NCBI GenBank assembly: GCA_963796685.1
Contig: CAWCMR010000025.1
Span: 1,888,001-1,952,000 of the forward strand
DNA: 64,000 bases
Direction of reading: 5' to 3'
DNA from: an uncultured delta proteobacterium
Lineage (GTDB): Bacteria; Myxococcota_A; Polyangia; Fen-1088
Every line of letters starts with the position of its first letter. The stretch's first letter is position 1. The notes beneath the pieces are model-generated. The model was not told where the DNA came from. It saw nothing but the letters and a program-made list of their open reading frames with translations, and did not search any database. The position numbers were made by a program, and so were the translations under genes. Positions 35,643 to 62,816 of this stretch are shown here, one piece after another.

Positions 35643-35910
35643 TACGCACAACTAGGACTCACGGGTGCGGGCTTTTCAAGCCAAAAGAACCGCCGTGGTC
35701 GAGGAATCGTCCGCCCCTTGCCTGGCCGCCAAGCCAAGGGCGCCTAGGATACGAGTCGTCGTCGCTCCTGCCTTCAAGCGCCGCACGTGCGAGGTCCGCA
35801 TCCATCAACGGCAGGATCCGCAGCGGATGCCGCAGAAAGCCTCGCCGAATCCACGCCCAAGAGGTCGGCACGAAAATTGATTGTCCAATGTTGCGAGCTG
35901 GAGGGGTGCC

Positions 35911-36702: not shown

Positions 36703-36834
36703 CCATTCGGGAAGGCAGCCGAGCGGGAGGTTGCTCAATACCAAGGGCATCGGGGCAGAGCCCGGTGCCCTATGTTTCCACTCAAGGGCCACCGCAAACG
36801 ACAGCTCGACCACGAATCTCAGTAGTCCCGGCTT

Positions 36835-37448: not shown

Positions 37449-37726
37449 GGACCTGAATATAGCACTTAATTCCGTGCGGGTGCTGGCCCGAGATTTTCGC
37501 ATTGCCGCCAAAATCGTCGAAAGTGCCCTGCGCTGGGAGATGAGTGCCGCGGCCGCTTGATCCGCCGGCGTTCTTCGTGGACCACTGCCTGGGCACGGAA
37601 GTCGTAGCGGAACGACTTCGAAAAGTGGGCGCGACGGTTCACGTTCTGGCGGCGCAGTCACGATGAAATTCGGCGGTGCACGGCTGGGCGGCGTGAGGAG
37701 GGGCTGAGCGGCCGCGACCGGAATCG

Positions 37727-37748
37727 TGTCAGTCCCCTGTGCCACCCT
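37727..37748 (+). promoter_or_regulatory. Putative PafBC-type promoter site 1
   Basis: TGTCAG (37727-37732)-N10-CACCCT (37743-37748), 8 nt before in-frame GTG 37757. Confidence 0.6.
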
Positions 37749-37756
37749 CGGCGATT

Positions 37757-38080
37757 GTGACCCTCGAAGAGCTCCGCAAGAAATTCTGGTGGCTTGGGCC
37801 AAGCCCGAAGGACTCCTACATCGTGGCTCTGGAGGGAGACACTGTGACCATCAAGGTGATCCAGTGCACCTGGAATCGCCGCACGCAGAAGTACGAGGAG
37901 GCGGTGGCGGCAGACTTCCGCGCACTGGGTTTGCAGGTGGTGTGGCAGCCATTCTTTTCGGAGAAGCTGCGCGCCGAGATCGAGAAGGCGCGCGAAAAGG
38001 ACGGCGCCAACTTCGACGAGGGAAGGTTCCTGGACGAGCAGCGCGCGGCGGAGGTCCGACGGGAGGCACGTGAGCGATGA
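37757..38080 (+). CDS. Hypothetical protein (~107 aa)
   Basis: Protein-like composition (MTLEELRKKFWW...); sits behind the conserved motif and just before pafB-like gene. Confidence 0.65.
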   Translation: MTLEELRKKFWWLGPSPKDSYIVALEGDTVTIKVIQCTWNRRTQKYEEAVAADFRALGLQVVWQPFFSEKLRAEIEKAREKDGANFDEGRFLDEQRAAEVRREARER

Positions 38081-38110
38081 GCGTTGCGAGGCCGTCACCC
38101 CGCGCGCTGA

Positions 38111-38145
38111 TTGATGTCCACCCGCCAGACGCCTACAATGACGCT
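38111..38145 (+). promoter_or_regulatory. Sigma70-type leaderless promoter of the WYL pair
   Basis: TTGATG (38111-38116)-17 bp-TACAAT (38134-38139)-6 nt-ATG 38146. Confidence 0.6.
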
Positions 38146-39243
38146 ATGGCGAGCAGGAAGCTGTCATCGCGGGTGGCGAGCGAAGATCGTTCGCGACAAC
38201 CGCCCGACGAGCGGATCCTGTCCTTGCTCATGCTGTTGCTCGAGGCGAATCGGCCCGTGTCGCGCGCCGAGATATTCCAGCGCATCGACGCCTACCGCAA
38301 GGTAAAACCGGCCGCGGCCGAGCGCAAGTTCGAGCGCGACAAGAAGGACCTGCGCACCCTGGGCGTGCCCATCGAAGAGCACGAGGAAAAGGGCCAGGAT
38401 GCGGAGCACCTGTACTGCGTTCGCAGGCGCGAGTACGAGCTGCGGCCGGTGCAGCTCGACGACGAGGAGCGAGTGGCGCTGATCCTGGCGGCCGAGGCGT
38501 TGCGCGGCACCGAGGGTCTGGTCTACGGCGAGCTGGTCGACGATGCCCTGCGGAAGCTGTCCTTCGACAGCGGCCGATCCCACCACGCCTTCACGCCCGC
38601 CAACCTTGGAATCATGCTGCCCTCGCGCGAGCACGGCGCGCGGCTGCGGCGCACGATGGCGGCCCTGGTCACGGCCATCGAGGGCCGTAAGCGCGTGACT
38701 ATCACCTACCCTTCGCCCGGCGGCGAGGCGACCGTGCGCGAGGTCGACCCGTACGCGGTCGTCTACTCGGGCGGCAACTGGCAACTGGTCGGCCACTGTC
38801 ACCTGCGCGACAAGCCGCGCACCTTCCGCGTCGACCGCATCGTCAAGGTCAAGCTGGCGCCCAAACCCGGCACCCCCGACTTCCAGCGCCCCGAGAGCTG
38901 GAACCTGGCGACCTACGTGCAGCGCTCGCCCTGGGTCTTCCAGGCCGGCGACACCCAGGCCGCATTCGACGTGGTGCTGGACATCGGACCCGAGCGCGGC
39001 TGGATGGCCGACGAGGACTTCGGCCCCGGCTCGTCGCGCGAGCCGCTGGCCCAGGCCGTGACCGGCGAGGAGGGCTGGACGCGCGTTCGCTTCCGCTCGG
39101 GCAACAGTGGCTACATCATCACGCGCGTGCTGGACGCCGCCGGGCACCTGTTGGTCGTCGAGCCGCGCGAGCTGCGCGCGCGCATCCGCGACATCACAGC
39201 CAGCATCGCTGCCGCCAACCGGACGGCAGGGGGTGCGCCATGA
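38146..39243 (+). CDS. PafB-like HTH-WYL-WCX transcription factor
   Basis: ERILSLLMLLL..AERKFERDKKDLRTLGVPI resembles the PafB N-terminus; WYL core REVDPY..WQLVGHCHLR...RTFRVDRI; C-terminal VVEPRELRARI. Confidence 0.87.
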   Translation: MASRKLSSRVASEDRSRQPPDERILSLLMLLLEANRPVSRAEIFQRIDAYRKVKPAAAERKFERDKKDLRTLGVPIEEHEEKGQDAEHLYCVRRREYELRPVQLDDEERVALILAAEALRGTEGLVYGELVDDALRKLSFDSGRSHHAFTPANLGIMLPSREHGARLRRTMAALVTAIEGRKRVTITYPSPGGEATVREVDPYAVVYSGGNWQLVGHCHLRDKPRTFRVDRIVKVKLAPKPGTPDFQRPESWNLATYVQRSPWVFQAGDTQAAFDVVLDIGPERGWMADEDFGPGSSREPLAQAVTGEEGWTRVRFRSGNSGYIITRVLDAAGHLLVVEPRELRARIRDITASIAAANRTAGGAP

Positions 39244-40245
39244 AGAAGCAAGAGCAGCGGCTGCGGCGCGCCCTGTACCTGGTGCCCTACGTGACCAAGC
39301 ACGAAGGTGGTGTGCGGCTGTCCGAGCTGGCGGAGATCGTTGGCGCCAAACCGGCCGAGCTGGAGAAGGAAATACGGGCGCTGCTCTACGTCGGCGTGCC
39401 GCAGGGATGCGACCACGTGAACATCTTCATCGACGGAAAGGGCCCTCAGGCGGTGGTTTCGGCCTTGCCGTGCCGGCTCTTGAACCGGCCGCCACGCCTG
39501 ACCACGCAGGAAGCGCTGGCCCTGCTCATCGGCGCCGAGGCCGTGAAGGCCACCGGGATACGCACCTACGAGGAAGCCATCGCTCGCGCCGCGAAGAAGA
39601 TCCGCGCGGCGCTCGGGCAGAGCGACAACGGGCTGGCCGGCGGGGATGGCATCGTCCTGGCCATGCCCGCCGCCGGCAAACAGAATGCGCTCGCCACGCT
39701 CTCCCGCGCGTGCCGCGAGCACCGCACCGTTGAGATGGACTACGCCTCGCTCTCGAGCCAGCACCGGCGCCCCGTCCGGCTGGAACCGTACGGCTTGCTC
39801 AACCACACCGGCGCCTGGTACGTGCTCGGCCGCAGCCTGACCCACCAGGAAGACTGCATCTTCGTCTTCAAGGTCGAGCGCATCCTCGGCGTCACCGTCC
39901 TTCCCACGACCTTCACCGTGCCCAAGGACTTCGACGTCAACAAGTACCGCGGCGACCGTATGTTCATCAGCGACTGGAAGCCCGCCAAGGTCACGCTCCG
40001 CCTGCGCGGGCCGGCGGCAGCGCGCATGCAGGGCTGGTTCGGGAAAGTCGGAGAAGCAGCGAGACGGCAGCCTGGTGGTTCACTTCAAGGACCACATCAC
40101 CGGCTGGCTGGCGGCGTGGGTGCTACGGCAAGGGGAGGGTGTGGAGGTCGTGGAGCCGGTGGAGTTGCGGGCGTGGGTGGGGCGGCTGGCGAAGAGGGTG
40201 GGGGAGGGGCACACCCGCACGTCCCTTCCTTGCCAAAGTGCCTGA
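39240..40245 (+). CDS. PafC-like HTH-WYL-WCX transcription factor (one +1 frameshift at ~40050; ~334 aa repaired)
   Basis: RLRRALYLVPYV..LLYVGVP resembles the PafC N-terminus; LEPYGL..WYVLG..FKVERI; WCX tail WLAAWVLRQGEGVEVVEPVELR in the shifted frame, stop 40243-40245; ATGA overlap with the PafB-like gene. Confidence 0.83.
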
Positions 40246-42559
40246 GGAACTCCATGAGCACCCGCCGCTGTGCTCGGCTCGGCTCGTTGTTGGCGTTGGT
40301 CTTGGCCTCGACCAGCCGGTAGCCCCAGGGCGACGACTCGATCTGGATGGTCAATCCCCTGCCGGCGACCTCGCCGTGGTACAGGGCCGCCTTGCCGGTC
40401 AGCACATCGGGGATGCGGCTGGCGACGCAGTTGTGCATCTTGGCCCCCTCGGACAACATCTCCTCGAGCGTACGCAGGGGCATGATGACGTCGTCGCCCG
40501 ATCGCCATCCCGCGCAGGGCGGCTCGGGAAGCACCAGCTCCTTCCCGTCGGCATTGACGATCGGCTTGCCGATTGCCTGGGCGACGTCGGCCAGTTGCTG
40601 GAGTTGTGCCATCCGTTCGTGCCAGGCATCCACCGCCCCGATGTAGCGAGCAGGCGAGGTGCTCCGCCGTGGATAGTCATCCATGGCGACGGCGTAGTCG
40701 AGCATCTCCTGGATGCGCGATCGCACGGCGAAGCGTTTTCGCCAGCAAACCGCCAACGCGGCCGCATGGTGTGACACGAAGGTGGCGAAGTCTTCGCCGA
40801 GATCGGGGACGTCACAGCAGGGCGGTACCAGCGTGATGGTGTGGCCCTTCACCAAGCGGAACCAGCGCGCATTGGCCAGCTTCTTGGATGGGATGTCCTC
40901 GGGGGCAAAGCGTAGCGGGGGTGGCAGCCACAGCGTGTAGCTGGGCACGCCGGCGCCCGCTCGGCGGATGAGGAGGCGCTGGGCGCTCAGTATGGACCGC
41001 AGCTCGTGCGGGCTAGCGTCTACGAGGCGCCGCCAGAGCGGTCGCTGCCTCTCCGACAGGCGCGCGTCTTGTGCCAGCTTCGCAGCGCCAATGGCCCAAG
41101 CCGCAACGGCGTCATCGAGCGCATCGTTGAGCCCACGTCCGGCTACCACGTTTCGCAAGAGCTTCTCGCCAGCCGCTCTCGTGCCAGCGCGATGGCCGAG
41201 CGCCGACAGCGCGTAGGCGAAGGTCAGCGCGCCGGGACAGGTGTCTACGACCTGCGCCAGCCGACCGCTCTTGTCCTTGGCGAGCCTCGCGTATAGCCAC
41301 GGACGCATATGGTTCGGAAAGCGCAACGCGATCTTCCGTGCTGTAGGATCGAGCATGGCAGCGGCGCTGACCGCGGCTTGCCGAATGGCCGCGCGCACGG
41401 TGCGCATGGTTTCACCGAGGTTCCCCTGTCTGGCGTGTTTTCTGCCCCGCGCCCCGTGCGGATTGCGAGGGACCAGTGCGCAGAACACCCAGTAGCGAGC
41501 GGCGCGGAAGGGATCTTGATCCAACCGCGGCAGGCCAGCCGTCAGTGCCCAGCGCTCCGATGCCCATCCGGCCTGGCTGCGAACCTTCAGCGAGTAGCGC
41601 GGCTCGAGGCACAGGTCCAGCTCGAAGCGGGACGGCACGCGGCCCTGGTGGTCGGAACGGAGCTCGAGCAGCAGACGGTCCGGCCAGCGGCGCAGGCGCA
41701 TCTCGACCGAGCGGCAGTAGTAATGGAAGACGGCCGTCTTGATTTCGTCGGGCGGGCGCACGCCTGGGGCATCGGCCGGCCAGCGGCCTGGCGCCAGCGT
41801 CGCCCGCAGACGATAGCGGCAGCAAGGCACCAGCGCGCGCGCCGCCGCGATGTCCAGTCCGCGCCGGCCGAGGGACTCGCACAGCCGACGGACCATTGCG
41901 GGTTTCAGCGTGCCGCCCTGCGAATACGCGGCATGGACCAGTTGCTCGCCCAGGGCCTCGATGTCGACGGCGCTCTCCCAGGGGATGAACGTCAAGGCCA
42001 GGCTGGCCGCCTTCTCGACGGCGACGTCGTGCTCGCGCAGATGGCGCAGCAGGATCTCCCTACGCGTGTCGGCGCTCGGCGGCATGAGCTCGGCCATGAG
42101 GCCGTCCGGAAAAGATCGCGAGCAGAAACGCAGAAGCACGTTCCCCTGGCTGGCGTCCAGCGCCAACACCGTCAATCGGCCAGCCTCAGCCCGGTCGCAG
42201 AGCAGCCCCTTCAGCCGCTGCAGAGCTCGCCCTCCCAGGCCTGCCGGCTCGTCGAGAAGGAGCAGGTCGGGCTCGAGCTGGCCATCAAGGCTGTCCGCGA
42301 GGCGCAGGTCCGTGCCTGCCTTCAGAGGCACATTCATCGCGGGCGCCACCCGTAGGCACTCGGCCCGGATCGTGTCGAGCAACAGGGTCTTGCCAGCGCC
42401 CTGGACGCCACGAATCACCAGCGGGTTGAAGCGCGGTCGCCCCGACCGCGAGAGCATCTTCGCCGCCGACGCGGCAAAGTGATTCTCCGGCCCGATGACA
42501 AACCGGTCGAAGGTCAGTTGGACCGGTGCCGGAGCGACGAGCAGATCTGTGCCAGGCAT
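40097..42559 (-). CDS. DnaA/Hda-type AAA+ domain fused to an unknown region and a C-terminal PcfJ-like domain
   Basis: LTFDRFVIGPENHFA, FNPLVIRGVQGAGKTLLL, LLLLDE, GLMAELMPPSADTRREIL; C-terminal LRTLEEMLSEGAKMHNCV..LTIQI..VEAKTNAN..PS. Confidence 0.7.
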   Translation of the reverse strand: MPGTDLLVAPAPVQLTFDRFVIGPENHFAASAAKMLSRSGRPRFNPLVIRGVQGAGKTLLLDTIRAECLRVAPAMNVPLKAGTDLRLADSLDGQLEPDLLLLDEPAGLGGRALQRLKGLLCDRAEAGRLTVLALDASQGNVLLRFCSRSFPDGLMAELMPPSADTRREILLRHLREHDVAVEKAASLALTFIPWESAVDIEALGEQLVHAAYSQGGTLKPAMVRRLCESLGRRGLDIAAARALVPCCRYRLRATLAPGRWPADAPGVRPPDEIKTAVFHYYCRSVEMRLRRWPDRLLLELRSDHQGRVPSRFELDLCLEPRYSLKVRSQAGWASERWALTAGLPRLDQDPFRAARYWVFCALVPRNPHGARGRKHARQGNLGETMRTVRAAIRQAAVSAAAMLDPTARKIALRFPNHMRPWLYARLAKDKSGRLAQVVDTCPGALTFAYALSALGHRAGTRAAGEKLLRNVVAGRGLNDALDDAVAAWAIGAAKLAQDARLSERQRPLWRRLVDASPHELRSILSAQRLLIRRAGAGVPSYTLWLPPPLRFAPEDIPSKKLANARWFRLVKGHTITLVPPCCDVPDLGEDFATFVSHHAAALAVCWRKRFAVRSRIQEMLDYAVAMDDYPRRSTSPARYIGAVDAWHERMAQLQQLADVAQAIGKPIVNADGKELVLPEPPCAGWRSGDDVIMPLRTLEEMLSEGAKMHNCVASRIPDVLTGKAALYHGEVAGRGLTIQIESSPWGYRLVEAKTNANNEPSRAQRRVLMEFLRHFGKEGTCGCAPPPPSSPAAPPTPATPPAPRPPHPPLAVAPTPPASR

Positions 42560-42565
42560 GGGGAC

Positions 42566-42587
42566 AGAATGCGATGGGAGACTGACA
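42566..42587 (-). promoter_or_regulatory. Putative PafBC-type promoter site 2
   Basis: Minus strand TGTCAG (42587-42582)-N10-CATTCT (42571-42566)-6 nt-ATG 42559. Confidence 0.7.
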
Positions 42588-42613
42588 GGAATTTTCGGAG
42601 ATGCGGTCCACCT

Positions 42614-44789
42614 TCAAAACCCGATCCGCCCCCGCGAGGTCGCCTTCACCCGAACCTCGGCCTCGATCTCGGCCAGCAATAGCTCGGCCGACACGGGCCG
42701 CCCACGGCCCGTCAAGCGCCGCTTCACCGCTGCGAAGTCGCCGGGGGCCAGGTTGGGGATGCGGGCGAGCGTGGATTCCACTGACGGCGAAACCTCGCCC
42801 GTGTAGCCGAGGTCGGCAAGCCCGCGGCGAAACGCCAGCAGGCTCTGCTCGGGCTTCAGAAAGCCGAGCTCGATCTTGAAGACAAAGCGGCGCAGCGACG
42901 CCGGGTCGAGCTTGTCGAACAGGTTGGTCGTGCAGGCGACCACGCCGGGGAATGCCTCGAGCTGCTGCAGGAACTCGTTGACCGCGGTCACCTCCCAGGA
43001 TCGCTGCGCGCCGGTGCGATCTTGCAGGAACGAATCCGCCTCGTCGAACAGCAGAACTGCTTCATCCCGCAGCGCGGACTCGAAGGCCGATGCGATGTTG
43101 TGCTCGGTGCCGCCGACCCACATGCTCAGAATGTCCGACGCGCGTTGGACGTCGAGCGGTCGCCCCGCCCGGTGCGCAAGGTACCGAACCAGCTCGGACT
43201 TGCCAGTGCCGGGCGGACCGTAGAGACACAGGGACACGCCCGCACCGTCGCCAGGTTGCCAGGTTTGGACCCGCCGCTCGACCTCCAGGAGATCGGCATC
43301 GGTGTTGACCAACTCGGGCAGGTAGCCGCCGGCGCGGAAGACCGGCGGGGCCATCCTGCGGCCGTGCAGCACGCGCTCGGCCGGTTTCAGGATGGTTTCC
43401 AGCGTACCCCGATCGATCGCCCCGTGCGACACGAGGCGCGCGGCCGACACCGCGGCACCGATGTGCGCCGGGCTCAGCTCGAAACGCTGGGCCAGCAGGT
43501 CCACGTCATCCGCAGGCAGGGTCGTATCGCTGCCCAGATGCTTGCGCCATGCCCGCCGGCGCTGCCCGGCGGTGAACTTGCCGACCTCGATGACGTAGGC
43601 GAAGCGCCGCAGGAACGCGGGATCGATGTCGTCCACGCGATTCGAGATCCAGATGGTTGGCACCGGGTTGGTCTCGAGCAGCAAGTTGAACCACTGCTTG
43701 GACATCGTACGTTGCTTGCGAGCAGCGTCGTCCTCGTCGCCCGTCACGCCCGCAAAGGGATTTCCCTGGAAAAGATCCTCGAGCTCGTCGAAGAGCAACA
43801 ACGCACGACCGTGAGACAGCAGCTTGTTGCCGAGCAGCAATGAACGTAGCCGCTGCTGCGACGTCGGCGACTCACCGGTGGAAGTCTCGCGCCCGGCCAC
43901 CATCAGCGACACGTCGAGCTTCTCCGCCGAGCAGGCGCGCCAGCTCGGTCTTTCCCGTGCCGGTTGGACCGTACACCAGCACGTTCACCCCGGCCTGTCG
44001 TGCGTCGAGCGCCGCGCGCAGGAGATTGCGCGCCGTTGCGACCTCGTTTCGCAGATGTGCGAAATCATCGGCCTCGAGTGACGACGCAGGCGCTGCCGGC
44101 AAGAATCGGTCGACGAACGCGGCCCCGTCGAGGCCGGGCGTGAACACGACGCCCTCGAGCCGTCTGTCGGCCTGGACTCGGTCATCGAGGTCACCGTGCT
44201 CGTTGAGCTCGATGAGCCCACTCGTCACCAGGCGGCTCTTGCGGTCGAGGACTGCGCAGACCGCGTCGGGTTTCTCGCCGGTGGCCGCCGCGATGAGAAT
44301 GCCGGGGCTGCGAAGCCCCACGCATGGGATCGGGTCGAGCAACTCCTGCATGTCACGACGGTTGGCAGCGATCGCGAATTGCAGGACGACGGCCTCGACT
44401 TGGTCCAGCCCGAGCGTACTCGCGATGACCTGCAGGCAGGCGGCCGCTGGTGCGCGCGGGGAAGCGGGCTTGCGGATCTTCTGCCCCCTCCGTTGCAGAA
44501 GTGACTGCAGCGCGCTGACAACCGCCTCGTCCATTCGCTTCTTGTTCGCCAGGGCTCTCCGCTCCGACGGCGTGGCGTTCCGTCCCACCAGCATGCGCAT
44601 GAGGCTCCGCTGATTGTCGACCATCATCTCGACGTGCTCCGGTATCAGCAGCGCGCCGGATGCCGCCAGGTTGTAGGCGTAGTCGAGCACGGTGTCGGTG
44701 AACGGGTCGGTCGCAGGGTCGATGACGTGATATCCCCTGCCCCGCCTTGATTTCTTGCATTGGTTGCACACGGTTCTGTCTCCCTTCAC
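42614..44789 (-). CDS. Tandem AAA+ ATPase (~724 aa; one +1 frameshift at ~43928)
   Basis: Module 1 YGPTGTGKTE..LLLFDE..DPAFLRRF; module 2 YGPPGTGKSE..LLFDEADSF..LDPASLRRF; C-terminal RIGF. Confidence 0.85.
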
Positions 44790-44794
44790 CAGCC

Positions 44795-44816
44795 AGAATG
44801 GCGCGTGGGTCTGACA
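44795..44816 (-). promoter_or_regulatory. Putative PafBC-type promoter site 3
   Basis: Minus strand TGTCAG (44816-44811)-N10-CATTCT (44800-44795)-5 nt-GTG 44789. Confidence 0.7.
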
Positions 44817-44847
44817 TGATTTTTCCCTGCAGCACCAACGCAGGTCG

Positions 44848-44869
44848 TGTCAGACCCCTGTTCCATGAT
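44848..44869 (+). promoter_or_regulatory. Putative PafBC-type promoter site 4
   Basis: TGTCAG (44848-44853)-N10-CATGAT (44864-44869)-6 nt-ATG 44876. Confidence 0.7.
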
Positions 44870-44875
44870 CAGCGC

Positions 44876-45484
44876 ATGATCATCGAGAACGACTCCTGCG
44901 ACGGGTTCACGCCCCCAACCCAGAGCCGCCTCTCCGTGAAGCGCGGCGGCCACCTCGTCATCCGCAAGTGGAACATCCCCAAGCCCGTGGTTCTGGTCGA
45001 CACGCGCGAGCAGGCGCCCTGGCCCTTGCACGAGAACCACCCGAGCTGGATCGGCGGCGAGAAGCGCGTCGCCTTGCCCGCCGGCGACTACTCCATCGAG
45101 GGCATGCAGGACCTCCTAGCCATCGAGCGCAAGACCCTGCCCGACGTCGTTCGCAGCACCATCGGCAACCGGGCGCGCTTCCTGCGTTCGTGCGAGCGCC
45201 TGGCGAAGCTACGCTGGAAGGCGATCCTGATCGAGGCCACCTACGAGGAGATGAAGCTTCCGTACAGCGAGACCATCGGTCCCGAGACCCAGGCGCACCC
45301 GAACGCCGTGCTCGGCACGCTCGATGCCATCGAGGCCAGGCTCGGGATCCCGGTCATCTACACCTCGCAGATCGCCGACCTGGCCACCGAGCGCGCCGCG
45401 AGCTGGCTGTCCAAGCACTTCACCTACTGGTGGCTTGAGCAGCACGGCCATGGCCGCGTACTGGACGATGAGGATGGGCTGTAG
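44876..45484 (+). CDS. ERCC4/XPF-family nuclease domain protein
   Basis: VLVDTREQ, LPAGDYSI, AIERKTLPD (GD..ERKxxxD) signature. Confidence 0.85.
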   Translation: MIIENDSCDGFTPPTQSRLSVKRGGHLVIRKWNIPKPVVLVDTREQAPWPLHENHPSWIGGEKRVALPAGDYSIEGMQDLLAIERKTLPDVVRSTIGNRARFLRSCERLAKLRWKAILIEATYEEMKLPYSETIGPETQAHPNAVLGTLDAIEARLGIPVIYTSQIADLATERAASWLSKHFTYWWLEQHGHGRVLDDEDGL

Positions 45485-45487
45485 ACG

Positions 45488-46300
45488 ATGACGACAGAAT
45501 CGAGCACAGCTCCGAGGCAGCAGGTCACCCGCGACGTCAGCCTGACCTACGGACAGGTCCGCGAAGCTGTGACCACGCTGGCTCGCGAGGTCGACCGCGT
45601 GAAGCGCGACGCCGGCTTCACCGCCGTGCTCGATACCATGTCGAAGTTCTGGGAATACTCGCCCTTCAACGAGTACCTGATCCACCTGCAGTTCCCACGC
45701 GCAACCAGGGTCGCGAGCCGCAAGACCTGGGAGAGCGTCGGCCGCAAGGTCAAACCCGCTGAGCGCCCCATCCACATCTTCGCCCCGGTGGCCATGCAGC
45801 AGCCCTTCATCGCGGTGCCGGTCTACGACATCTCACAGACCTGCGGCCGACGGCTGCCATCGCTCGACCTAGCCCTGCGCGGGCCCACCGACGTCGCCAA
45901 CGGCCTCGAGCGTGCTGCCGCCAGGTTGGGCATTCGAGTCGCGCGTTTCAACGGCCCGCAAGGGTCGCAGGGCCACTCCGGTGGGGGCGTGATCTTCCTT
46001 CGCCGCCGGCTGCCCGGCCTGGAACGCGCCGCCACCATCGTGCACGAGCTGGCGCACGAGATCCTGCACGACATGCGTTCGCGTGGCGAGATGGTGCAGC
46101 GCCAGCCCGAAACCGAGGCCGAAGCCACCAGCTACGTGGTCCTGCGCGCCCTCGGCCTGCCCTCCAAAGCACCTGCGTACATCGCCTGGTATGGCGGCGA
46201 CGGCAAGCTCGTGCTCCAGTCACTGAAGCGAGTGCAGCGGGCGGCGAGGAGAATTCTGCGGGTGTACGAAATTCCCCGGTCACGTGAGCTAGCGGCGTAA
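45488..46300 (+). CDS. ArdC-like protein (ssDNA-binding N-terminus + zincin metallopeptidase)
   Basis: YSPFNEYLI..Q...ATRVAS..TW...GR.VK, VYDISQT.G; HELAHE..H and EAEATSYVV. Confidence 0.82.
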   Translation: MTTESSTAPRQQVTRDVSLTYGQVREAVTTLAREVDRVKRDAGFTAVLDTMSKFWEYSPFNEYLIHLQFPRATRVASRKTWESVGRKVKPAERPIHIFAPVAMQQPFIAVPVYDISQTCGRRLPSLDLALRGPTDVANGLERAAARLGIRVARFNGPQGSQGHSGGGVIFLRRRLPGLERAATIVHELAHEILHDMRSRGEMVQRQPETEAEATSYVVLRALGLPSKAPAYIAWYGGDGKLVLQSLKRVQRAARRILRVYEIPRSRELAA

Positions 46301-46308
46301 AATGAACT

Positions 46309-46584
46309 ATGGCCCGCACCACTAAGGCCCAAATCCTGGCGTTGCTCGGTGGTATCCAACGTCCCGGATTATATCGCTTGATTGCGTTCCTCGACTCATC
46401 GGACTTCTTCACCGCGCCGGCCTCGACCATGTTTCACGCCGCCTATCCCGGCGGACTAGCCCACCACTCCATCAGCACGCTGTTCACGCAGAAGGTGCCT
46501 CCCCGCTCATCCAAGCTTGGATCAGGGATCGTAGTGCCTGGTCTGGATCAGGATCTCAAATCGGAGACGGTGGCACCTGCGTGA
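46309..46584 (+). pseudogene. Truncated HD-domain (YhaM-like) hydrolase
   Basis: SDFFTAPAS..FH.AYPGGLAHHS N-terminal motif, then similarity ends (~46475) before the HD motif. Confidence 0.65.
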
Positions 46585-46660: not shown

Positions 46661-47686
46661 CTAGAGGTCGATTATTTGCTTGAAACGTTTGACAGTCATC
46701 GGCCTCCGATTCGGACGGCTTTGGCGATGGAGGGCCCTGTGACAAGTGGGGCAGAGAGCAGCCAAATCCCCCTCAGTTATCTCCCGTCCCTTCTTGGGCG
46801 GTTGTCCGGCAAGGTGGTGTGCTTCAAGCACATTGGCGCCGTATCGCTTCACGACATTGGCCCCGCAAGCGTCACATATACCGCCTGCATTGTTGCGTAC
46901 GCGAGCTGCCAGTTGGGGATTGCGCTTGAAGATGGAAGCCACTTCTCTTTCGACCATGTACTCCCGGAACTTCTGTGTATGGCCCTTCGAGCGGGTGGAA
47001 ATGCTGAGCTTCTTGCTATCGTCCCCTTTTCCATAGTTCAGAATACACCTGATGACCGCGCGCTTCCATGCTAGACCTCGATCATCCTTCCGGTCCTTTC
47101 GATAGTATGTGAACTTGGCTCGTCCGAAGGCACCAGGCGACTTTCCTCCCGGGATTTCCCAGCAGCGTTCTTGAGGTGGTAGCAGAATGCCCGAAGTGGT
47201 CGGAGCTTTGCAGCAGTAGAGGGCGGAGCTAGTGCGCGAGGTTCCTTTCTTGAATTCCGGCCAATAGGTAGCGTCTGAATACCAGCCCACTACCACTTGC
47301 TTCTTGGTATTGAATCTAGCCATTGCTCCAACCGCGGCCTCAGCTGTTCGAAAAGCCTTCTCTTCGGGCGGTGGCCACGATGCTACGAATACAATCAGGA
47401 GACCATTGACTGCGATGCCCTTGCAGTGAGGCTCAAGCTTCTCTAGCTTTGGAAGGCCGCCATTGTTGGGGGGAAAGTAGCCGTAGAAGTGTCCGTTCCG
47501 TGGCGCAAAATTGAAGTCTTCAGCGCCGTTCTTCTTCCTCTTGACCCACTCCATCTCGGAGTAGATGGGATCCATTGGGGCGGGCCCGCGATATCGGAGC
47601 ATCCATCCAATCTTGACAAACAGGGCCTTCGTCGGAGGTGAGGGACGAGACACGCCAGCTTTCGTCATGGGCAGATATTGTACCAT
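46661..47686 (-). CDS. HNH endonuclease (McrA-like C-terminus) with uncharacterised N-terminal domain
   Basis: RN..L, CDACG, LEAHH, DLAALCPTCHRALH; visibly lower GC than flanks; start may be ATG 47668. Confidence 0.78.
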   Translation of the reverse strand: MVQYLPMTKAGVSRPSPPTKALFVKIGWMLRYRGPAPMDPIYSEMEWVKRKKNGAEDFNFAPRNGHFYGYFPPNNGGLPKLEKLEPHCKGIAVNGLLIVFVASWPPPEEKAFRTAEAAVGAMARFNTKKQVVVGWYSDATYWPEFKKGTSRTSSALYCCKAPTTSGILLPPQERCWEIPGGKSPGAFGRAKFTYYRKDRKDDRGLAWKRAVIRCILNYGKGDDSKKLSISTRSKGHTQKFREYMVEREVASIFKRNPQLAARVRNNAGGICDACGANVVKRYGANVLEAHHLAGQPPKKGREITEGDLAALCPTCHRALHRQSRPNRRPMTVKRFKQIIDL

Positions 47687-48112
47687 GAGGCATGCATGCC
47701 TGGAACCGCCATGTTGAGGGACCCTCCCATGTTGAAGACTGCCGATGAAGGACGCCCCGGTTAACGTGAACCAACGGGCGGTGCTGTCATTGCTCGGCCT
47801 GCCTTTCCATTCGAAGACCTGCAGCAGGGCGGAACACTGCCCACCACCCTCTCGCTCTTTGTCATGCCTCTGGGGAGGGCCATGTCCGTGATGGATAGAA
47901 GCGCGTCGCTATAGTGCAGCAACGCCTCCAGCAATTCGATCTCTTCCTCGGCGGCACCAATCTCACGCTGGAAGACCCTTCTCCTGTCCACGCCGAACAA
48001 CTCCAAGCCAAGGTCCTCGCCGCGCCCGCAAATCGCTTGCCGGGCTGTCCCTCGCCGTTCACCAATAGCCTGGCTGGTGAGTCGGCGCCAACGTGTCTGA
48101 TGCACGCCAACG

Positions 48113-49402
48113 CTAGGACCCGCCTCCAACGCCGCAGGCCAGGGCCTGCGCAATTATCTCACCCTTCGCCGAGTCCCCTACCTCCACGATTCTGGCAACC
48201 CTGTTCAGATCAAACGGCCGTAGCGCCACCTCCGGCGACTTACTGCAATCTCCACATGGCCCAATCTCGATGATGGCCTCCCGACTCGCGCTATCAGCGC
48301 ACGGAAATACAATCGCCGCCTTCCCCCCTTGCCCTTGACTGAGGGCATACACCGCGAGCTGGTACAGCATCTCCCTCGGCAGCTCTGTCTCCCAGAGATC
48401 GCGGTACTTCGCATCGAGGAAGGTGACGATCTTCCCGCCTCGCCGAACGGTGAAATCTGGACGCGGCGAAGGTGAACGGCGGCCCCTCGGATTGTAATCG
48501 GGGAGGTATCGCATGAAAGCGGCGAGCGGCTCCTCTTCGGACACGTCGAAGTCGTGCAGGTGCTCGCGGAGAAACCGTGCGACCAGGGCTTGGAAGAAGC
48601 GGTTCATGTCGAAGAGGAAACCTGGAACCCGGACGCCGCGGCTCCCTTCGAGAGCAAGCCACGTCGAGGAGTGTAGAAGCTCGATCAGTCGAAGCGCGGA
48701 AGAATATGCGGAGGTCATGCGGGTAATCCCGCGCTCTGCTTGCACCAGCGTGTCGCGCGCAAGCTCGACTGGCTCGGCAAGCTGGGCCAGCGTCCTCGCC
48801 ACGCGCTTCAGCTCCCAAACGAGATCGCGATCGCTTGCAACCTCCGCGGCGAGCGTCACGCCGGAGCGCAGAATCCTGTTCAAAAGGTGATCGGTCGAGC
48901 GCGGGAATTCCTGGCACGGGACGCTCGCCTGGTCCCAATCCGGCCGCAGCGCGAACTGGCCGAAGTTGATTCGGCCCCGAGGAGCGGCAAGCTCGCAATC
49001 GCGTCGGATGTAGCGACGAGCCAAGCCTCTGTCGATGATTTCACGCGCCTCGCTGAGTAGCTGCGCCGCCAGCAGATCCTGAAATAGGCTACCGGCGGAT
49101 TGGTACTCCGCCATCCCGAACAGGCGAAGGTCGCGAAGCCCGTAGGCGTAGCGAACGAGTCGGAGCAGCTTTCCCGCCTCCAGCTTGGGCTCAATCGTGA
49201 TGGTCAGGTCGCCGACTTGTACTCGCCCGACGTGGGCGAATGCGCTCACCTCGAGGCCCCGGCGTAGCTCTCGTATGCGAAGTAGCCCCCGACGGCCGAG
49301 CTCGTCGACCAGATGTTGCGCCGCCACATCCTCGACGGTGCGTTCGCGCAGCTCGGCCGTGTCTGGTCCCTTCGTCTGCCATTCTGTCAGGCGAAGGTCC
49401 AC
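48113..49402 (-). CDS. mcrC: McrC-family restriction nuclease subunit
   Basis: VGRVQVG.LTI.IEPK, PRGRI, FLFDMNRFFQ, RPDF..FLDAKYR, YQLAVYA. Confidence 0.88.
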   Translation of the reverse strand: MDLRLTEWQTKGPDTAELRERTVEDVAAQHLVDELGRRGLLRIRELRRGLEVSAFAHVGRVQVGDLTITIEPKLEAGKLLRLVRYAYGLRDLRLFGMAEYQSAGSLFQDLLAAQLLSEAREIIDRGLARRYIRRDCELAAPRGRINFGQFALRPDWDQASVPCQEFPRSTDHLLNRILRSGVTLAAEVASDRDLVWELKRVARTLAQLAEPVELARDTLVQAERGITRMTSAYSSALRLIELLHSSTWLALEGSRGVRVPGFLFDMNRFFQALVARFLREHLHDFDVSEEEPLAAFMRYLPDYNPRGRRSPSPRPDFTVRRGGKIVTFLDAKYRDLWETELPREMLYQLAVYALSQGQGGKAAIVFPCADSASREAIIEIGPCGDCSKSPEVALRPFDLNRVARIVEVGDSAKGEIIAQALACGVGGGS

Positions 49403-49404
49403 GC

Positions 49405-49604
49405 TTACCCTCCGGTCCCGACCTCATCACCTTCGTCGTCGTCCGACTCTCCAGGCCCAGTAGGCCCATTCCCTCTGCCTTCCACCTCAGCCGCTTCCAT
49501 GGTTGCAGTAATCTCCGGGAAGCCTTCGAGAAGCCTCTCGCACAGAATCTCCAGTCTCGCCGGCTCGAACAAGGACTGGTCGATTCTTCGTTGCTTCACG
49601 TCGA
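49405..49604 (-). pseudogene. mcrB: Detached C-terminal ~66 codons of mcrB
   Basis: Joins in frame to 51646 once the IS and one CTAG copy are removed (LGPGL|VDVKQRRID...). Confidence 0.8.
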
Positions 49605-49843
49605 CTAGCGTGAGTTTACCGGACGAGCGCTGGTTTGAGCTCTGAGCCACCGCGCCAGGGCCACTGTTTTCCGTCGGTGACCATGGTGTGTGTCCACGCC
49701 CGCGCAGCGTATATACTAACTAATGTTGGTCAGCTTCTCGGCGTTTGTCCACCCGCAGACACAACATGTCGACGGTGACGCGGGAGAGGTTGGTCGCGCA
49801 TATTTGCTTGCCTTGATATGTTTTGCTGGTGTATATACTAACA

Positions 49844-51559
49844 ATGGCAAGCCTGCAGCGAGTCCACGTTCGCGGCCACACCTACTGGCGCATCGTCGAG
49901 TCCCACCGTGTTGGCGGAAAGCCCCGTCTCTCCGTGGTTGCCCACCTCGGCAAGGCCGATGATTTGCTCCTCAGGCTCAAGGCCGCCGATTCCCTTCGCA
50001 TCAAGTCCCTCTCCCATGGCGCCGTCGCGGCTATTCTCGCAGTGGCTCGCGAGCTCGACGTTGCCGGCACGATCGACCGTCACCTGGCCACCGGCGGGCG
50101 TCGAGACCGACATGCCTCGCGCCATGTCCCTGACCCACGGCGCCGCCCCGAACGCCATGATGGTCTCAGCGCTGGTCAGACCTTCGAGTTGGGCTGTGTC
50201 GGCAGGGCTTGTCATGCTACGAGTAAGCGAGCTTTTGCCGAGTGGGCACGCTCGACGACTCTGGGCGAGCTCGCCAAGATAGACGTCGACCTGCTTTCCA
50301 GTCAGCACTTCTGGGATCAGATGGACCAATTGCCGGTTGAGATCCTTGCATCCGTAGAACGCGAAATCGTAGGCCGTGCTTTGGAGCGCTTCGATCTCAA
50401 GCTCGACACAGTCCTCTACGACGCCACCAATTTTTTCACCTTCATCGATTCCACGAATACCCGCCCCAAGCTCCCCGCACGCGGCCACAACAAACAGAAG
50501 CGACATGACTTGCGCCAGCTTGGCGTTGCACTCTTGTGCACCCGCGATGAAGGGGTGCCGCTTTTCCACCGGACTTATGGCGGTGAAGTCCACGATGCGC
50601 GATCGTTTGCCGACCTCATCCCGACGATTCAGGAACGCCTCGTCGAGATTGGCCGAGATTTGCAGTCCATGACCATGGTGTACGACAAGGGCAACGTCTC
50701 GCGGGCGAACCAGGAGCGCGTGGATGCGTCGAGGATTCATTACGTTGCCTCTCTTGCTGTCTCGAATCAGCGTCCCCTTATCACGGAAGCGAATTCGCAC
50801 CTTGAGTCCGTCAAGCTCAGCGAGAAGGAATCCGTCCAGGCCTACCGCACCCGACGAAAGGTCTGGGGCGCTGAACGCACCGTCGTAGTCGTGGTCTCCG
50901 AATCGTTTCGTGCGGGGCAGCTGCGAGGGGTCCTCCAGCACATAGCCTCCGCGCAGAAGTGGCTCGACCATCTGGCCAACACGTTGGCGCGGGGCAGGCA
51001 ACGACGTTCGCGCGAGGCCATTGAGCGCGACATCCAGACCCGACTAATGGGACGCCAGCACCTGCAACAGGTCATCCGATGGGAGCTGACTGGAGACAAG
51101 CAGCTCTCGCTCAAGCACGAGGTCGATGCCCAAGCGATTGAGGCTCTGTCACGCGACGTGCTCGGTCACCTCATCCTCATGACCGATAGGGACACTTGGT
51201 CCACCGAGGACATCATCCGCGCTTACCGCGGTCAGGCCCACGTCGAGGCCGTCTTCGCTCATCTCAAGGATCCTATGCACGTGATGCTTCGGCCTCAGTA
51301 CCACTGGACCGACCAGAAACTCCATGTCCACGTCTTCATGTGCGTTGTCGCCTATCTGCTCGCCCGACTTCTTCATCTCCGCGCTCAGCGTGCAGGCTAC
51401 CGCCACTGCCAAGAGGCCTTGCTCGACGGCCTCGCACAGATCAGAAAGGCCACCGTCATCCGCACGACCTCCAAGAAATCACTACGCACGACCACCCAAC
51501 TCGAGGACATTCAACCTGATCTCCAGAGCCTCGTGGACCAGCTCGGGGTTGCCCTCTAA
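49844..51559 (+). CDS. DDE transposase (IS1634-like)
   Basis: TYWRIVES.RV.GKPR, LYDATN, GHNKQKR.DL.Q, VYDKG, Y..Q..VE..F..LK, RP.YHW....L..H. Confidence 0.9.
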   Translation: MASLQRVHVRGHTYWRIVESHRVGGKPRLSVVAHLGKADDLLLRLKAADSLRIKSLSHGAVAAILAVARELDVAGTIDRHLATGGRRDRHASRHVPDPRRRPERHDGLSAGQTFELGCVGRACHATSKRAFAEWARSTTLGELAKIDVDLLSSQHFWDQMDQLPVEILASVEREIVGRALERFDLKLDTVLYDATNFFTFIDSTNTRPKLPARGHNKQKRHDLRQLGVALLCTRDEGVPLFHRTYGGEVHDARSFADLIPTIQERLVEIGRDLQSMTMVYDKGNVSRANQERVDASRIHYVASLAVSNQRPLITEANSHLESVKLSEKESVQAYRTRRKVWGAERTVVVVVSESFRAGQLRGVLQHIASAQKWLDHLANTLARGRQRRSREAIERDIQTRLMGRQHLQQVIRWELTGDKQLSLKHEVDAQAIEALSRDVLGHLILMTDRDTWSTEDIIRAYRGQAHVEAVFAHLKDPMHVMLRPQYHWTDQKLHVHVFMCVVAYLLARLLHLRAQRAGYRHCQEALLDGLAQIRKATVIRTTSKKSLRTTTQLEDIQPDLQSLVDQLGVAL

Positions 51560-51570
51560 AATTAGTATAT

Positions 51571-51616
51571 ACGTCCAACTACACAGAATTGTCTGCAATT
51601 CTGTGTAGTTGGACGT
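51571..51616. repeat. Perfect 21-bp-arm hairpin downstream of the transposase
   Basis: ACGTCCAACTACACAGAATTG-TCTG-CAATTCTGTGTAGTTGGACGT. Confidence 0.85.
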
Positions 51617-51640
51617 CCCTTCTCCCCTCGTCCGGTAAAC

Positions 51641-54148: not shown

Positions 54149-54163
54149 GGTCCCATGTCCAAG

Positions 54164-57388: not shown

Positions 57389-57422
57389 GGGGATGGCCCT
57401 CCGCAGTCCGGTGAGTTTGCGC

Positions 57423-57479
57423 TCATCGCTTGCTGCCTCGGCTGTCGGGGTGAACGATACGCCGGCCGGCGGGGGGCGG
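57423..57479 (-). repeat. Imperfect ~57-bp direct repeat of the methyltransferase 3' end (other copy 58640-58696)
   Basis: TCATCGCTTGCTGCCTCGG identical for 19 bp then ~80% identity overall; both proteins end PPPA.RxxHPDxRGSKR. Confidence 0.8.
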
Positions 57480-62648: not shown

Positions 62649-62667
62649 GGCCTCAGAGCACTCCGGT

Positions 62668-62787: not shown

Positions 62788-62816
62788 CGATTTCTGGTGC
62801 AGATACGACCTGGGCA

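Follow-up and report, generated by a model that had tools for sequence, protein, structure and literature searches.

Do two adjacent WYL-domain genes of an uncultured delta proteobacterium switch on promoters of their own in the manner of mycobacterial PafBC? The genes lie in a 64,000-nucleotide stretch of DNA (the window). A preliminary description of it had proposed a mobile, non-actinobacterial PafBC module, self-contained between 37727 and 46584, in which four transcription units start 5-8 nt downstream of TGTCAG-N10-CAnnnT. In the published accounts available to us, the PafBC site is tGTCgg(N10)tA(N3)T, of which PafB reads -23 to -28; recA is among the roughly 150 genes of the reported mycobacterial regulon; sigma adaptation has been demonstrated for PafBC and no other regulator; and the literature on PafBC treats it as actinobacterial.

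The TGTCAG motif cluster is real, and stronger than first described. The window contains four exact matches, at 37727(+), 42587(-), 44816(-) and 44848(+) as originally given, against 0.37 expected, and none of 100 shuffles produced four or more. The whole genome (7,309,768 bases, both strands) holds 18 matches to TGTCAG-N10-CANNNT, four of them in a 7.1-kb part of the window. A weight matrix was built from 18 sites, all from other genomes with the window left out, and scanned over 14.6 million positions. It exceeded 20 bits at only six places, namely the four window sites and a divergent pair 7 kb past the window end (C25:1959026(-) and C25:1959062(+); Table 1). All six fit in a 33-kb span of one island, and the best score elsewhere was 16.1 bits, which gives no indication of a global regulon including recA. 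The regulon is thus self-contained on its island, as proposed, but reaches past 37727-46584, with two further promoters at 71.0 kb.

Table 1. Predicted features of the island, in window coordinates; "ext." marks window numbering continued past its end.
Feature	Position	Strand	Remarks
Left island junction	35716..35722	.	right junction is the tRNA-Ala 3' end, 87142 (ext.)
PafBC-type promoter 1	37721..37748	+	TGTCAG 37727-37732 as -26 element; CACCCT 37743-37748 -10-like; 32.1 bits
Small protein, 107 aa	37757..38080	+	first cassette gene; GTG (37757) 8 nt past -10 of promoter 1
Ordinary promoter of the pair, TTGATG-N17-TACAAT	38111..38139	+	6 nt ahead of PafB-like ATG
PafB-like HTH-WYL-WCX, 365 aa (WYL1)	38146..39243	+	Pfam WYL 2.9e-22, WCX 4e-7
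PafC-like HTH-WYL(-WCX) (WYL2)	39240..40245	+	Pfam HTH_PafC 7e-21, WYL 1.5e-15
DnaA/Hda-type AAA+ (N-terminal) with PcfJ-like domain (C-terminal), 820 aa	40097..42559	-	target of promoter 2
PafBC-type promoter 2	42566..42593	-	TGTCAG ... CATTCT; 25.5 bits; ATG (42559) 6 nt downstream
Tandem AAA+ ATPase, one gene	42614..44789	-	target of promoter 3
PafBC-type promoter 3	44795..44822	-	32.3 bits; GTG (44789) 5 nt downstream
PafBC-type promoter 4	44842..44869	+	26.6 bits; ATG (44876) 6 nt downstream; back to back with promoter 3
ERCC4 nuclease	44876-45484	+	Pfam ERCC4 3.5e-9; first gene of promoter-4 operon (44876..46584)
ArdC-N/M78 metallopeptidase protein	45488-46300	+	Peptidase_M78 3e-5; ArdcN 2.3e-3, below cut-off
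91-aa ORF	46309-46584	+	no family match; possibly a truncated remnant
Defence cluster	46661..64000	-	inside the same island; continues past window end to DruE-like helicase (promoter 5)
PafBC-type promoter 5	71026 (ext.)	-	precedes start of DruE-like helicase
PafBC-type promoter 6	71062 (ext.)	+	heads AddAB-like operon

The geometry of the sites equals that of the published PafBC promoter. Each joins a GTC-bearing -26 element across N10 to a -10 hexamer and lacks a -35: at spacers of 16-18, agreement with TTGACA never exceeds 2 of 6. Flanking bases outside the search pattern are also conserved (rAwyC[g/a]-TGTCAG-[A/T]CCC), in line with the similar flanks noted earlier.

The motif recurs well beyond this genome. 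We found 18 more sites across 10 related genome loci and further sites in 52 metagenome loci, mostly 5-8 nt ahead of start codons; the related loci belong to Myxococcales, Polyangiaceae or Deltaproteobacteria MAGs. The metagenome loci (319 kb) gave 47 matrix matches of at least 16 bits, against 0.04 expected at the background rate of this genome. A start codon 5-8 nt downstream opens an ORF of at least 100 aa at 16 of 24 sites, compared with 4.9% of 20,000 random positions. Among 66 distinct sites picked by their upstream half only, so that the bipartite test is free of circularity, 49 carry both A at position -11 and T at position -7 with the spacing at precisely N10. The CAnnnT form of the second hexamer is true of the window sites but does not generalize, the -12 base of the 66 being C in 32, T in 19, A in 8 and G in 7. 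Motif and regulator also tend to occur together: in a count over 40 relatives, noisy and drawn from kin, the eight with a strong PafC-like match hold 31 pattern matches against 10 for a reversed control, and the other 32 hold 47 against 46. We give almost no weight to the idea that the four sites have no regulatory meaning, having clustered by chance or marking the termini of a repeated mobile sequence. Two sites do form an inverted pair 32 nt apart, and an unrelated six-copy repeat that contains TGTCAG is known in one relative (G010), but the spacing to start codons is kept ahead of different genes at dozens of loci with differing surroundings, and the site counts already contradict this explanation.

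Reciprocal and specific best matches identify the two adjacent genes by sequence as one PafB-type and one PafC-type, as had been read from their N-termini. In a PDB comparison, the E values of WYL1 are 2.7e-20 against M. smegmatis PafB and 1e-6 against PafC; those of an intact WYL2 homolog are 3e-20 against the PafC half of 6sj9, 1e-11 against PafC and 3e-5 against PafB. WYL1 and WYL2 share 28% identity over the linker-WYL-WCX region. Published work describes PafB R46 and R50 as readers of the GTC triplet and R181, Y196, R204, R208, R211 and R214 as needed for ssDNA binding. The GTC readers correspond to R60 and R64 of WYL1, which also keeps the equivalents of PafB R8, A43, K52, R56 and Y76; the counterparts of S40 and E42 are K and A. 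All five ssDNA-binding arginines are kept, and Y196 is replaced by Q (WQL); the Y196A mutation in M. smegmatis is described as abolishing ssDNA binding. PafB W70, reported to insert into a sigma-3/beta-flap pocket in mycobacteria, is likewise Q in WYL1. Opposite the acidic PafC residue D62, which contacts sigma-4, stands an F followed two positions later by D, in a stretch where the alignment is uncertain. The changes at Y196, W70 and D62 speak against a PafBC mechanism, as does the -12 base, which is mostly C and not T. The pair itself has the ordinary promoter ascribed to it: a promoter scan recovered TTGATG-N17-TACAAT as one of two matches (0.8 expected), and TTGAYS-N17-TACnnT, 6-7 nt upstream of the start, is kept in five of the seven loci compared.

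We consider it likely that a PafBC-type heterodimer activates the island promoters by sigma adaptation upon ssDNA, which is the best explanation of these data. The PafB-like and PafC-like proteins would be made constitutively from their -35/-10 promoter and most likely form a heterodimer, whose WYL domains would bind ssDNA as the signal. The PafB-like HTH would then read the -26 element (rAwyCgTGTCAGwCCC), and the PafC-like HTH would substitute for the -35 that region 4 of the housekeeping sigma factor otherwise contacts. Transcription would start 6-7 nt past the nAnnnT -10, yielding mostly leaderless mRNAs. Promoter 1 would drive the small gene, probably with read-through into the WYL pair and hence positive feedback; the other five would drive the DnaA-AAA/PcfJ gene, the tandem AAA+ gene, the ERCC4/ArdC-like operon, the DruE-like operon and the AddAB-like operon.

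It is quite unlikely, by our estimate, that the motif is a real site served differently, either by the WYL pair as an ssDNA-released repressor of the BrxR/CapW kind or by another factor, be it the small protein, a host factor or an alternative sigma factor. Characterised WYL regulators beside defence systems are, in the descriptions available, mostly repressors; several PafBC-RNAP contact residues are not conserved; and no gene accompanies the motif more consistently than that of the small protein. However, the site is non-palindromic, sits where the -35 is missing and keeps a fixed N10 to nAnnnT, which fits an activator that replaces the -35 contact. Without an activator, these promoters would have no -35 at all and mostly a poor -12. 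The proteins, moreover, are specifically PafB- and PafC-like rather than BrxR- or CapW-like (E about 1e-20 versus 1e-4). As for an alternative sigma factor, no gene for one was found among the island ORFs scanned, and a -35/-10 pair of the sigma-70 family would need more than the 10 nt that separate TGTCAG from the -10.

The host is a Myxococcota MAG, a soil myxobacterium, so the module is non-actinobacterial as proposed. In keeping with the proposed mobility, the pair and all six promoters lie on a 51.4-kb island, inserted at tRNA-Ala and absent from the closest relative (G002): the alignment with that genome runs to window position 35718, gives way to 4.3 kb of unrelated DNA and resumes at 87142. 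An integrase gene (L089:1944-3122) abuts the tRNA-Ala (L089:3143-3216).

The genes behind the promoters point to damage- or invader-induced DNA repair and defence as the probable role of the regulon. Promoter 5 heads a Druantia/DISARM-like operon, in which a DruE-like helicase is followed by an SNF2 helicase and methylases; promoter 6 heads an AddAB-like nuclease-helicase followed by a ShosTA/PsyrTA-like pair. From 46661, the defence cluster comprises HNH, McrC, an IS on the plus strand, McrB-like, two ORFs with no family match (54164-54751 and 54652-55575), HNH_2, RhuM, YhcG, Eco57I-like and DrmMI-like methylases and the SNF2 helicase. The module had been placed beside a restriction island; in fact the cluster shares its island and has a PafBC-type promoter directed into it. 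The HD domain assigned earlier to the third gene of the ERCC4-ArdC operon was not confirmed, that gene, the 91-aa ORF, having no family match. Elsewhere, the DnaA-AAA/PcfJ fusion (L019, L018 and L102), the tandem AAA+ gene and an M78 peptidase recur behind the motif, as do DnaB-like helicases, an ADP-ribosylglycohydrolase and a type I cas gene.

Such a target list could also mean that the regulon serves the life cycle of the island (damage-induced replication, establishment or transfer) and not host repair or defence, which we regard as unlikely. The DnaA-type AAA+/PcfJ fusion, the ArdC-like protein, the DnaB-like helicases of related loci (some of them close to ParAB or to a fragment of Pol III alpha), the integrase beside the tRNA-Ala and the parallel with SOS-induced ICEs and prophages all lend themselves to this view. 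On the other hand, operons of defence or repair type stand behind two of the six promoters, no motif precedes the integrase, no att repeat was found, and the island ORFs scanned include no relaxase, type IV secretion, capsid or terminase genes.

The 107-aa small protein has no Pfam or NCBIfam match, yet its family comprises 63 clusters with 54-91% identity. Its gene lies directly ahead of the WYL pair in the window and in five other loci (L018, L019, L020, L022 and L026), and has the motif upstream in 35 of 49 metagenome loci. By this arrangement, it is predicted to form a three-gene cassette with the PafB-like and PafC-like genes, yet may be a target and not a cassette subunit, because in 14 of the 25 metagenome loci with room to see the pair no pair adjoins it.

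Actinobacterial PafBC (M. smegmatis and M. tuberculosis; PDB 6sj9, 7p5x, 9fnd) and the island system share adjacent paralogous HTH-WYL-WCX genes with separate PafB- and PafC-type identities, the GTC-reading and WYL arginines, a GTC element at -28 to -23 with N10, nAnnnT and no -35, and an ordinary promoter for the regulator itself. The name of the family goes back to a genomic link with the Pup-proteasome locus (pafA). The two systems differ in that the island system belongs to Myxococcota, in a genome (88.6% complete) where Pup ligase (Pup_ligase, PF03136) gave no match although the Corynebacterium glutamicum control was detected; has six promoters on one island instead of the mycobacterial regulon's many genes; uses a longer -26 element (about 16 nt conserved) with A, not g, as fifth base; has mostly C at -12 and Q for W70 and Y196; and begins with the small gene.

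The combination had been thought undescribed, but two papers already name PafB/PafC homologs in the pafB-pafC-cyaA operon of Myxococcus xanthus (MXAN_1359/1360), where 24 of 51 LexA-affected genes are said to have a putative 'PafBC-binding sequence'. As described there, that operon is likewise an adjacent WYL pair of the same phylum, but is chromosomal and LexA-repressed, unlike the island pair with its ordinary -35/-10 promoter and purely local regulon. Among other WYL regulators, again from the published descriptions available, SiwR of M. smegmatis is also an ssDNA-binding activator with a small adjacent regulon and a needed, conserved -26 region, but is a homodimer with a palindromic site, a GGA triplet and DinB-superfamily targets. 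DdaA (Moraxellaceae) and DriD (Caulobacter) are likewise activators turned on by DNA damage, and DdaA also raises restriction-modification and CRISPR-Cas immunity; both are homodimers and chromosomal global regulators, and DriD needs no RNAP to bind DNA and makes its contacts with the beta subunit and alpha-CTD, not sigma-4. BrxR and CapW also sit in defence islands, and CapW senses ssDNA, but they are single-gene homodimeric repressors, of a type that acts at a palindromic operator in the promoter of its own gene or of the defence system, and much more distant in the PDB comparison (E about 1e-4). The island pair did not match that repressor class, being two diverged paralogs with a non-palindromic site at -26 of six promoters.

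A diderm phylum thus shares the protein pair and promoter grammar of PafBC, with pair and promoters on one island, which suggests that PafBC-like gene switching is portable and not limited to actinobacteria. To our knowledge, sigma adaptation has been shown solely with actinobacterial RNAP, which carries RbpA and CarD. A more tentative reading, possible rather than probable, is that sigma adaptation is not exclusively actinobacterial and that a mobile PafBC cassette with its own promoter code acts as an ssDNA-inducible plug-in switch. Any gene behind a signal of about 28 nt (the -26 element and a bare -10, with leaderless mRNA) would then become ssDNA-inducible; myxobacterial islands would use the switch for Druantia/DISARM-like, ShosTA-like and type I cas systems and for repair enzymes, and the 107-aa protein would be a new circuit component or a first-response effector. 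If right, this reading would make the mechanism transferable between very different RNA polymerases, provide a compact and predictable ssDNA-inducible promoter module, and tie an activator-type sensor of DNA damage or invaders to large defence systems about whose control little has been established. Tests would be precise and cheap, because the six promoters, the pair and the small gene can be cloned together.

Two genes are split in the assembly by 1-base indels that are absent from near-identical strains. In the PafC-like gene, the annotated frame extends to 40322 because of an indel near 40049; WCX reads in the +1 frame to a stop at 40243-40245 and is present in intact homologs, and a soil-metagenome contig has one base fewer at 40049. 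Were this frameshift real in this strain, the system would be broken here. The tandem AAA+ target of promoter 3 is a single gene, broken into ORFs of 305 and 432 aa by an indel near 43920, such that Walker A ends the first ORF and the remainder of the AAA+ domain begins the second. It is a single ORF elsewhere (719 aa in L019 and 717 aa in L107), and contigs from two runs have one base fewer at 43920.

Four TGTCAG-N10-CANNNT sites had been reported around the pair of WYL regulators, and a pattern search of the window recovered all of them, at 37727(+), 42587(-), 44816(-) and 44848(+). The expected number was 0.37, none of 100 shuffles reached four, and long ORFs have their start codons 8, 6, 5 and 6 nt past the sites, respectively. 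Genome-wide, the pattern has 18 matches (7,309,768 bases in 26 contigs, the window being C25:1888001-1952000), 4 of which lie inside 7.1 kb of the window. We built a 28-position weight matrix from 18 sites of other genomes only, which avoids circularity, and scanned it over 14.6 M positions. The matrix exceeded 20 bits at six places in the genome: the four window sites and a back-to-back pair at C25:1959026(-) and C25:1959062(+), 7 kb past the window end (71026 and 71062 in window numbering continued). The genome-wide scan, which the preliminary description had proposed as a check, thus gave matches above 20 bits only at these six clustered sites, the next best score anywhere in the genome being 16.1 bits. 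By our own arithmetic, five further sites would fall by chance into the 33 kb around the first with a probability of about 6e-11.

The six sites have the geometry of PafBC promoters. Bases outside the search pattern are also conserved (rAwyC[g/a] upstream and [A/T]CCC downstream), and no -35 element was found at any of the six, since matches to TTGACA never exceed 2/6 at spacers of 16-18. When sites from the window, the related locus L088, ten genome loci and 52 metagenome loci were chosen by their upstream half alone, 49 of the 66 distinct sites had the hexamer bases A (-11) and T (-7) at a spacing of exactly N10; the -12 base of the 66 was C (32), T (19), A (8) or G (7). The published in vivo PafBC consensus is tGTCgg(N10)tA(N3)T without a -35 element, PafB contacting positions -23 to -28; here, TGTCAG likewise lies at -28 to -23 with respect to the hexamer. 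The pair itself has the ordinary promoter previously ascribed to it, TTGATG-N17-TACAAT, 6 nt ahead of the PafB-like ATG. TTGAYS-N17-TACnnT stands at the equivalent place in four related loci (L018, L019, L020 and L022) and is not evident at that position in L021 or L026.

The PafB-like and PafC-like identities proposed for the two proteins were borne out by separate and specific best matches among all PDB sequences. For WYL1, the E value was 2.7e-20 with M. smegmatis PafB, compared with 1e-6 for PafC and about 1e-4 for other WYL regulators. With P0002, an intact homolog 82% identical to WYL2, it was 3e-20 for the PafC half of the fused Arthrobacter PafBC, 1e-11 for M. smegmatis PafC and 3e-5 for PafB, and the N-terminal 268 residues of WYL2 itself gave the same ranking. 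Outside the HTH, the two proteins share 28% identity. According to the sigma-adaptation paper, R46 and R50 of PafB hydrogen-bond the two guanines of the GTC triplet, and W70 lies at the wing tip, which inserts into a sigma-3/beta-flap pocket. In our alignment, R60 and R64 of WYL1 correspond to R46 and R50, and R8, A43, K52, R56 and Y76 are retained, while W70 is replaced by Q. Among the residues named in the 2025 ssDNA paper, R181, R204, R208, R211 and R214 are all retained in WYL1 and Y196 is replaced by Q. PafC D62 lies opposite F in WYL2, in an uncertain stretch of the alignment. Judged by sequence, the pair and its promoters thus appear to belong with PafBC; they differ from it in that the link to the Pup-proteasome and the global regulon are missing and two RNAP-contact residues are changed. 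The host genome, 88.6% complete, yielded no Pup ligase gene.

Pfam and NCBIfam upheld most of the preliminary gene calls around the pair (see the table), except for the HD label and the division of the tandem AAA+ protein into two ORFs. The HD label had been given to the 91-aa ORF, for which neither database offers support; judging from its sequence and from the lower G+C that follows, this ORF may be a truncated remnant. The tandem AAA+ ORFs are a single gene split by a frameshift: Walker A ends the first ORF, the remainder of the domain opens the second, and L019 and L107 have the gene as one unbroken ORF (719 and 717 aa, respectively). A frameshift also deprives the assembled PafC-like ORF of its WCX domain. 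The WCX region in the +1 frame, with its stop at 40243-40245, matches the C-termini of intact homologs of 326-339 aa. Soil-metagenome contigs from runs of one study are 95-99% identical to the window; one of them has one base fewer at 40049, and contigs of two runs have one base fewer at 43920. Near-identical strains thus have both genes intact, and the indels in the host assembly are either errors or strain-specific. In its read-through frame, the PafC-like gene converges with the 820-aa gene, their 3' ends overlapping by about 150 nt (40097-40245), and the proline-rich tail of the 820-aa protein is encoded antisense to the WCX region.

Features of the island and its left flank, and of related loci (L) compared with it; coordinates without a prefix are those of the window, continued past its end
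Feature	Coordinates	Strand	Remarks
TPP riboswitch (RF00059, 56.6 bits)	35531-35644	-	ahead of thiamine genes; last core feature on the left
ParE toxin	36835-37167	-	island, just left of the cassette
Phd/YefM antitoxin domain	in ORF 37164-37802	-	island, just left of the cassette
Small protein, 107 aa	37757-38080	+	no family match (Pfam, NCBIfam)
WYL1 (PafB-like)	38146-39243	+	WYL and WCX domains (Pfam/NCBIfam)
WYL2 (PafC-like)	39240 onward	+	HTH_PafC and WYL domains (Pfam/NCBIfam)
DnaA/Hda-type AAA+ fused to PcfJ-like domain, 820 aa	40097-42559	-	Pfam/NCBIfam
Tandem AAA+ gene	42614-44789	-	AAA+ domains (Pfam/NCBIfam)
ERCC4 nuclease	44876-45484	+	Pfam/NCBIfam
Peptidase_M78 with sub-threshold ArdC-N match	45488-46300	+	Pfam/NCBIfam
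91-aa ORF	46309-46584	+	no family match (Pfam, NCBIfam)
McrC	48113-49402	-	defence cluster
DDE transposase gene	49823-51559	+	between McrC and McrB-like gene
McrB-like Mrr_N-AAA_5 gene	51641-54148	-	defence cluster
Eco57I-like methylase ORF	58640-61075	-	beside DrmMI-like ORF
DrmMI/type-IIG-like methylase ORF	60810-62741	-	after SNF2 helicase
SNF2 helicase, 930 aa	62817-65609	-	after DruE-like helicase
Cas_GSU0053 gene	L020:6447-7874	-	site within annotated 5' end
Cas3-like helicase	L020:2147-5299	-	
TGTCAG...TAGNNT site	L027, L034, L036 and L070 at ~8.08-8.11 kb	-	also in L038 and L083

The host is a Myxococcota MAG (6.5% contamination), because the related loci come from Myxococcales, Polyangiaceae and 'Deltaproteobacteria' MAGs and the named homologs agree. 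Its closest relative in the collection, G002, is 91% identical over thiG/thiE. The alignment of G002 with the window ends at 35718, about 75 nt beyond the TPP riboswitch, is followed in G002 by 4.3 kb of unrelated DNA, and restarts precisely where a tRNA-Ala gene has its 3' end (window-extended 87142); a tyrosine integrase adjoins this tRNA gene. From these two breaks, all six sites therefore lie inside one 51.4-kb island that is missing from G002. A BLAST comparison of the tRNA-Ala region with the island showed no att repeats, only a 23-nt match that falls in coding sequence and chance matches of 11-12 nt. PafC-like matches are patchy, occurring in 13 of 40 relatives (in 8 of these 13 at E <= 1e-30). 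Within ORFs without a family match (35659-36706), a 15-nt unit is repeated in four tandem copies at 36414-36492. Elsewhere in the window, a stretch of lower G+C (0.60, 8-12 kb) holds a weak match to the AbiEii nucleotidyltransferase-toxin at 7930-8640(+), adjoining two long ORFs without a family match.

The predicted targets in the window are the small gene, the DnaA-AAA/PcfJ protein, the tandem AAA+ protein and the operon of ERCC4, M78-ArdC-like and 91-aa genes, and read-through from the small gene into the pair is probable. The leftward promoter at 71026 lies 8 nt ahead of a 1798-aa DEAD/MZB helicase that matches PADLOC DruE at 8e-90. Behind this helicase lie the SNF2 helicase and the DrmMI/type-IIG-like and Eco57I-like methylase ORFs (see the table), and further along the same strand come YhcG, RhuM, HNH_2, McrB-like, an IS, McrC and HNH genes. 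The DDE transposase gene may mark an IS that inserted into the McrBC operon and split it. The Eco57I-like and DrmMI/type-IIG-like ORFs overlap by 266 nt in different frames, perhaps because a single long methylase or restriction gene has suffered a further indel. The rightward promoter at 71062 is followed by a short Shine-Dalgarno leader, AddB-like and AddA-like nuclease-helicases, and a phosphoribosyltransferase with a DprA-like gene, the last two matching PsyrT/ShosT and PsyrA/ShosA.

In other loci, the motif stands ahead of the same DnaA-AAA/PcfJ fusion, the tandem AAA+ gene, an M78 peptidase and a 377-aa AAA protein, and also of DnaB-like helicases, DUF2779, an ADP-ribosylglycohydrolase and a type I cas gene. 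The last is Cas_GSU0053, beside a Cas3-like gene, and the position of the site suggests that this cas operon of L020 is under the same PafBC-type control. Related islands with these targets also carry GmrSD, PLD-helicase and transposase genes. Across the loci, the predicted regulon is thus variable, yet consistently concerned with DNA transactions and with a clear defence component.

The promoter is conserved beyond the host. Ten close genome loci (L017-L026) hold 18 further TGTCAG-N10-YANNNT sites; at three additional ones the -12 base is G, and a start codon or a plausible hexamer comes next. At 16 of 24 sites in the window, L088 and L017-L026, a start codon 5-8 nt downstream opens an ORF of at least 100 aa, a placement found at 4.9% of 20,000 random positions. 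We collected 52 metagenome loci with the small protein as query, 49 of them with enough upstream sequence: TGTCAG-N10-NANNNT lies within 70 nt of the small gene in 27, a one-base variant retaining GTCA in 8, and neither in 14. Over 319 kb of metagenome loci, the matrix gave 47 matches of at least 16 bits against 0.04 expected from the background rate of the host genome. We also compared a tighter pattern with its reversed control across 40 relatives, a noisy test among genomes that are kin: the eight genomes with a strong PafC-like match had 31 pattern and 10 control matches, the 32 others 47 and 46, and the host itself 8 and 3. One relative (G010) has an identical 24-nt match to a loose pattern at six places on four contigs, which probably belongs to a multi-copy element that has nothing to do with the regulon. 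Among distant Anaeromyxobacter-type PafC-like loci (about 30% identity), a TGTCAG...TAGNNT site occurs in 6 of 61, and the remaining 55 are without it. In four of the six, the site is on the strand opposite to the PafC-like gene, about 1.9 kb upstream.

Taken together, sequence comparison establishes the anatomy of the cassette, its family assignments, the retained contact residues, the promoter geometry and the confinement of the sites to the island. By analogy with mycobacterial work, the pair would be made constitutively and activated by ssDNA lying across the WYL domains, possible sources being damage, phage or plasmid replication, and incoming DNA. The PafB-like HTH would read the -26 element, the PafC-like HTH would take over the -35 contact of sigma region 4, and transcription would start at, or just ahead of, the start codon. 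With a weak -12 base and no -35 element, the promoters would stay silent unless the activator is present. As far as the DNA goes, these data support the earlier interpretation as a mobile PafBC-like module with its own local targets.

The preliminary description had also known of no earlier account of this combination. The label PafBC has been used outside actinobacteria before, for adjacent WYL genes of M. xanthus were named pafB and pafC; these are reported to be LexA-repressed, and a 'PafBC-binding sequence' is noted in 24 of 51 genes. Defence-linked WYL regulators are known as repressors (BrxR, CapW) or homodimeric activators (DdaA, DriD, SiwR). Our searches of openly accessible papers turned up no island-borne PafBC pair with a local regulon, nor the combination as a whole, in which a mobile PafB/PafC cassette has an extended -26 code of its own, a conserved extra gene, an island-confined regulon and defence operons as some of its targets.

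The extra gene encodes a family without a Pfam entry (63 clusters, 54-91% identity), of which a profile gave a match in the host and one marginal match in a phylum-wide sample of 401 genomes. In the predicted structure (pLDDT 81.9), an alpha/beta unit comes first and two helices after it. Foldseek against the PDB returned nothing at E <= 0.001, a wide VIA-align search found only common alpha/beta folds (best Z 5.9), and an Atlas search gave no usable match. A predicted complex with the PafB-like protein and the intact PafC-like homolog scored 0.00 in a run without controls, which counts neither for nor against an interaction. The small gene lies directly ahead of the pair in the window, L018, L019, L020, L022 and L026; the L019 copy (L019:8451-8800) has an in-frame TGA at a tryptophan codon conserved in all other members. 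In metagenome loci with room to tell, the pair is right behind it in 11 of 25, and islands of the L022/L107 type carry a second, free-standing copy with the motif ahead. Because the pair is often not adjacent and free-standing copies are preceded by the motif, the small gene may be regulated by the system no less than it is a part of it.
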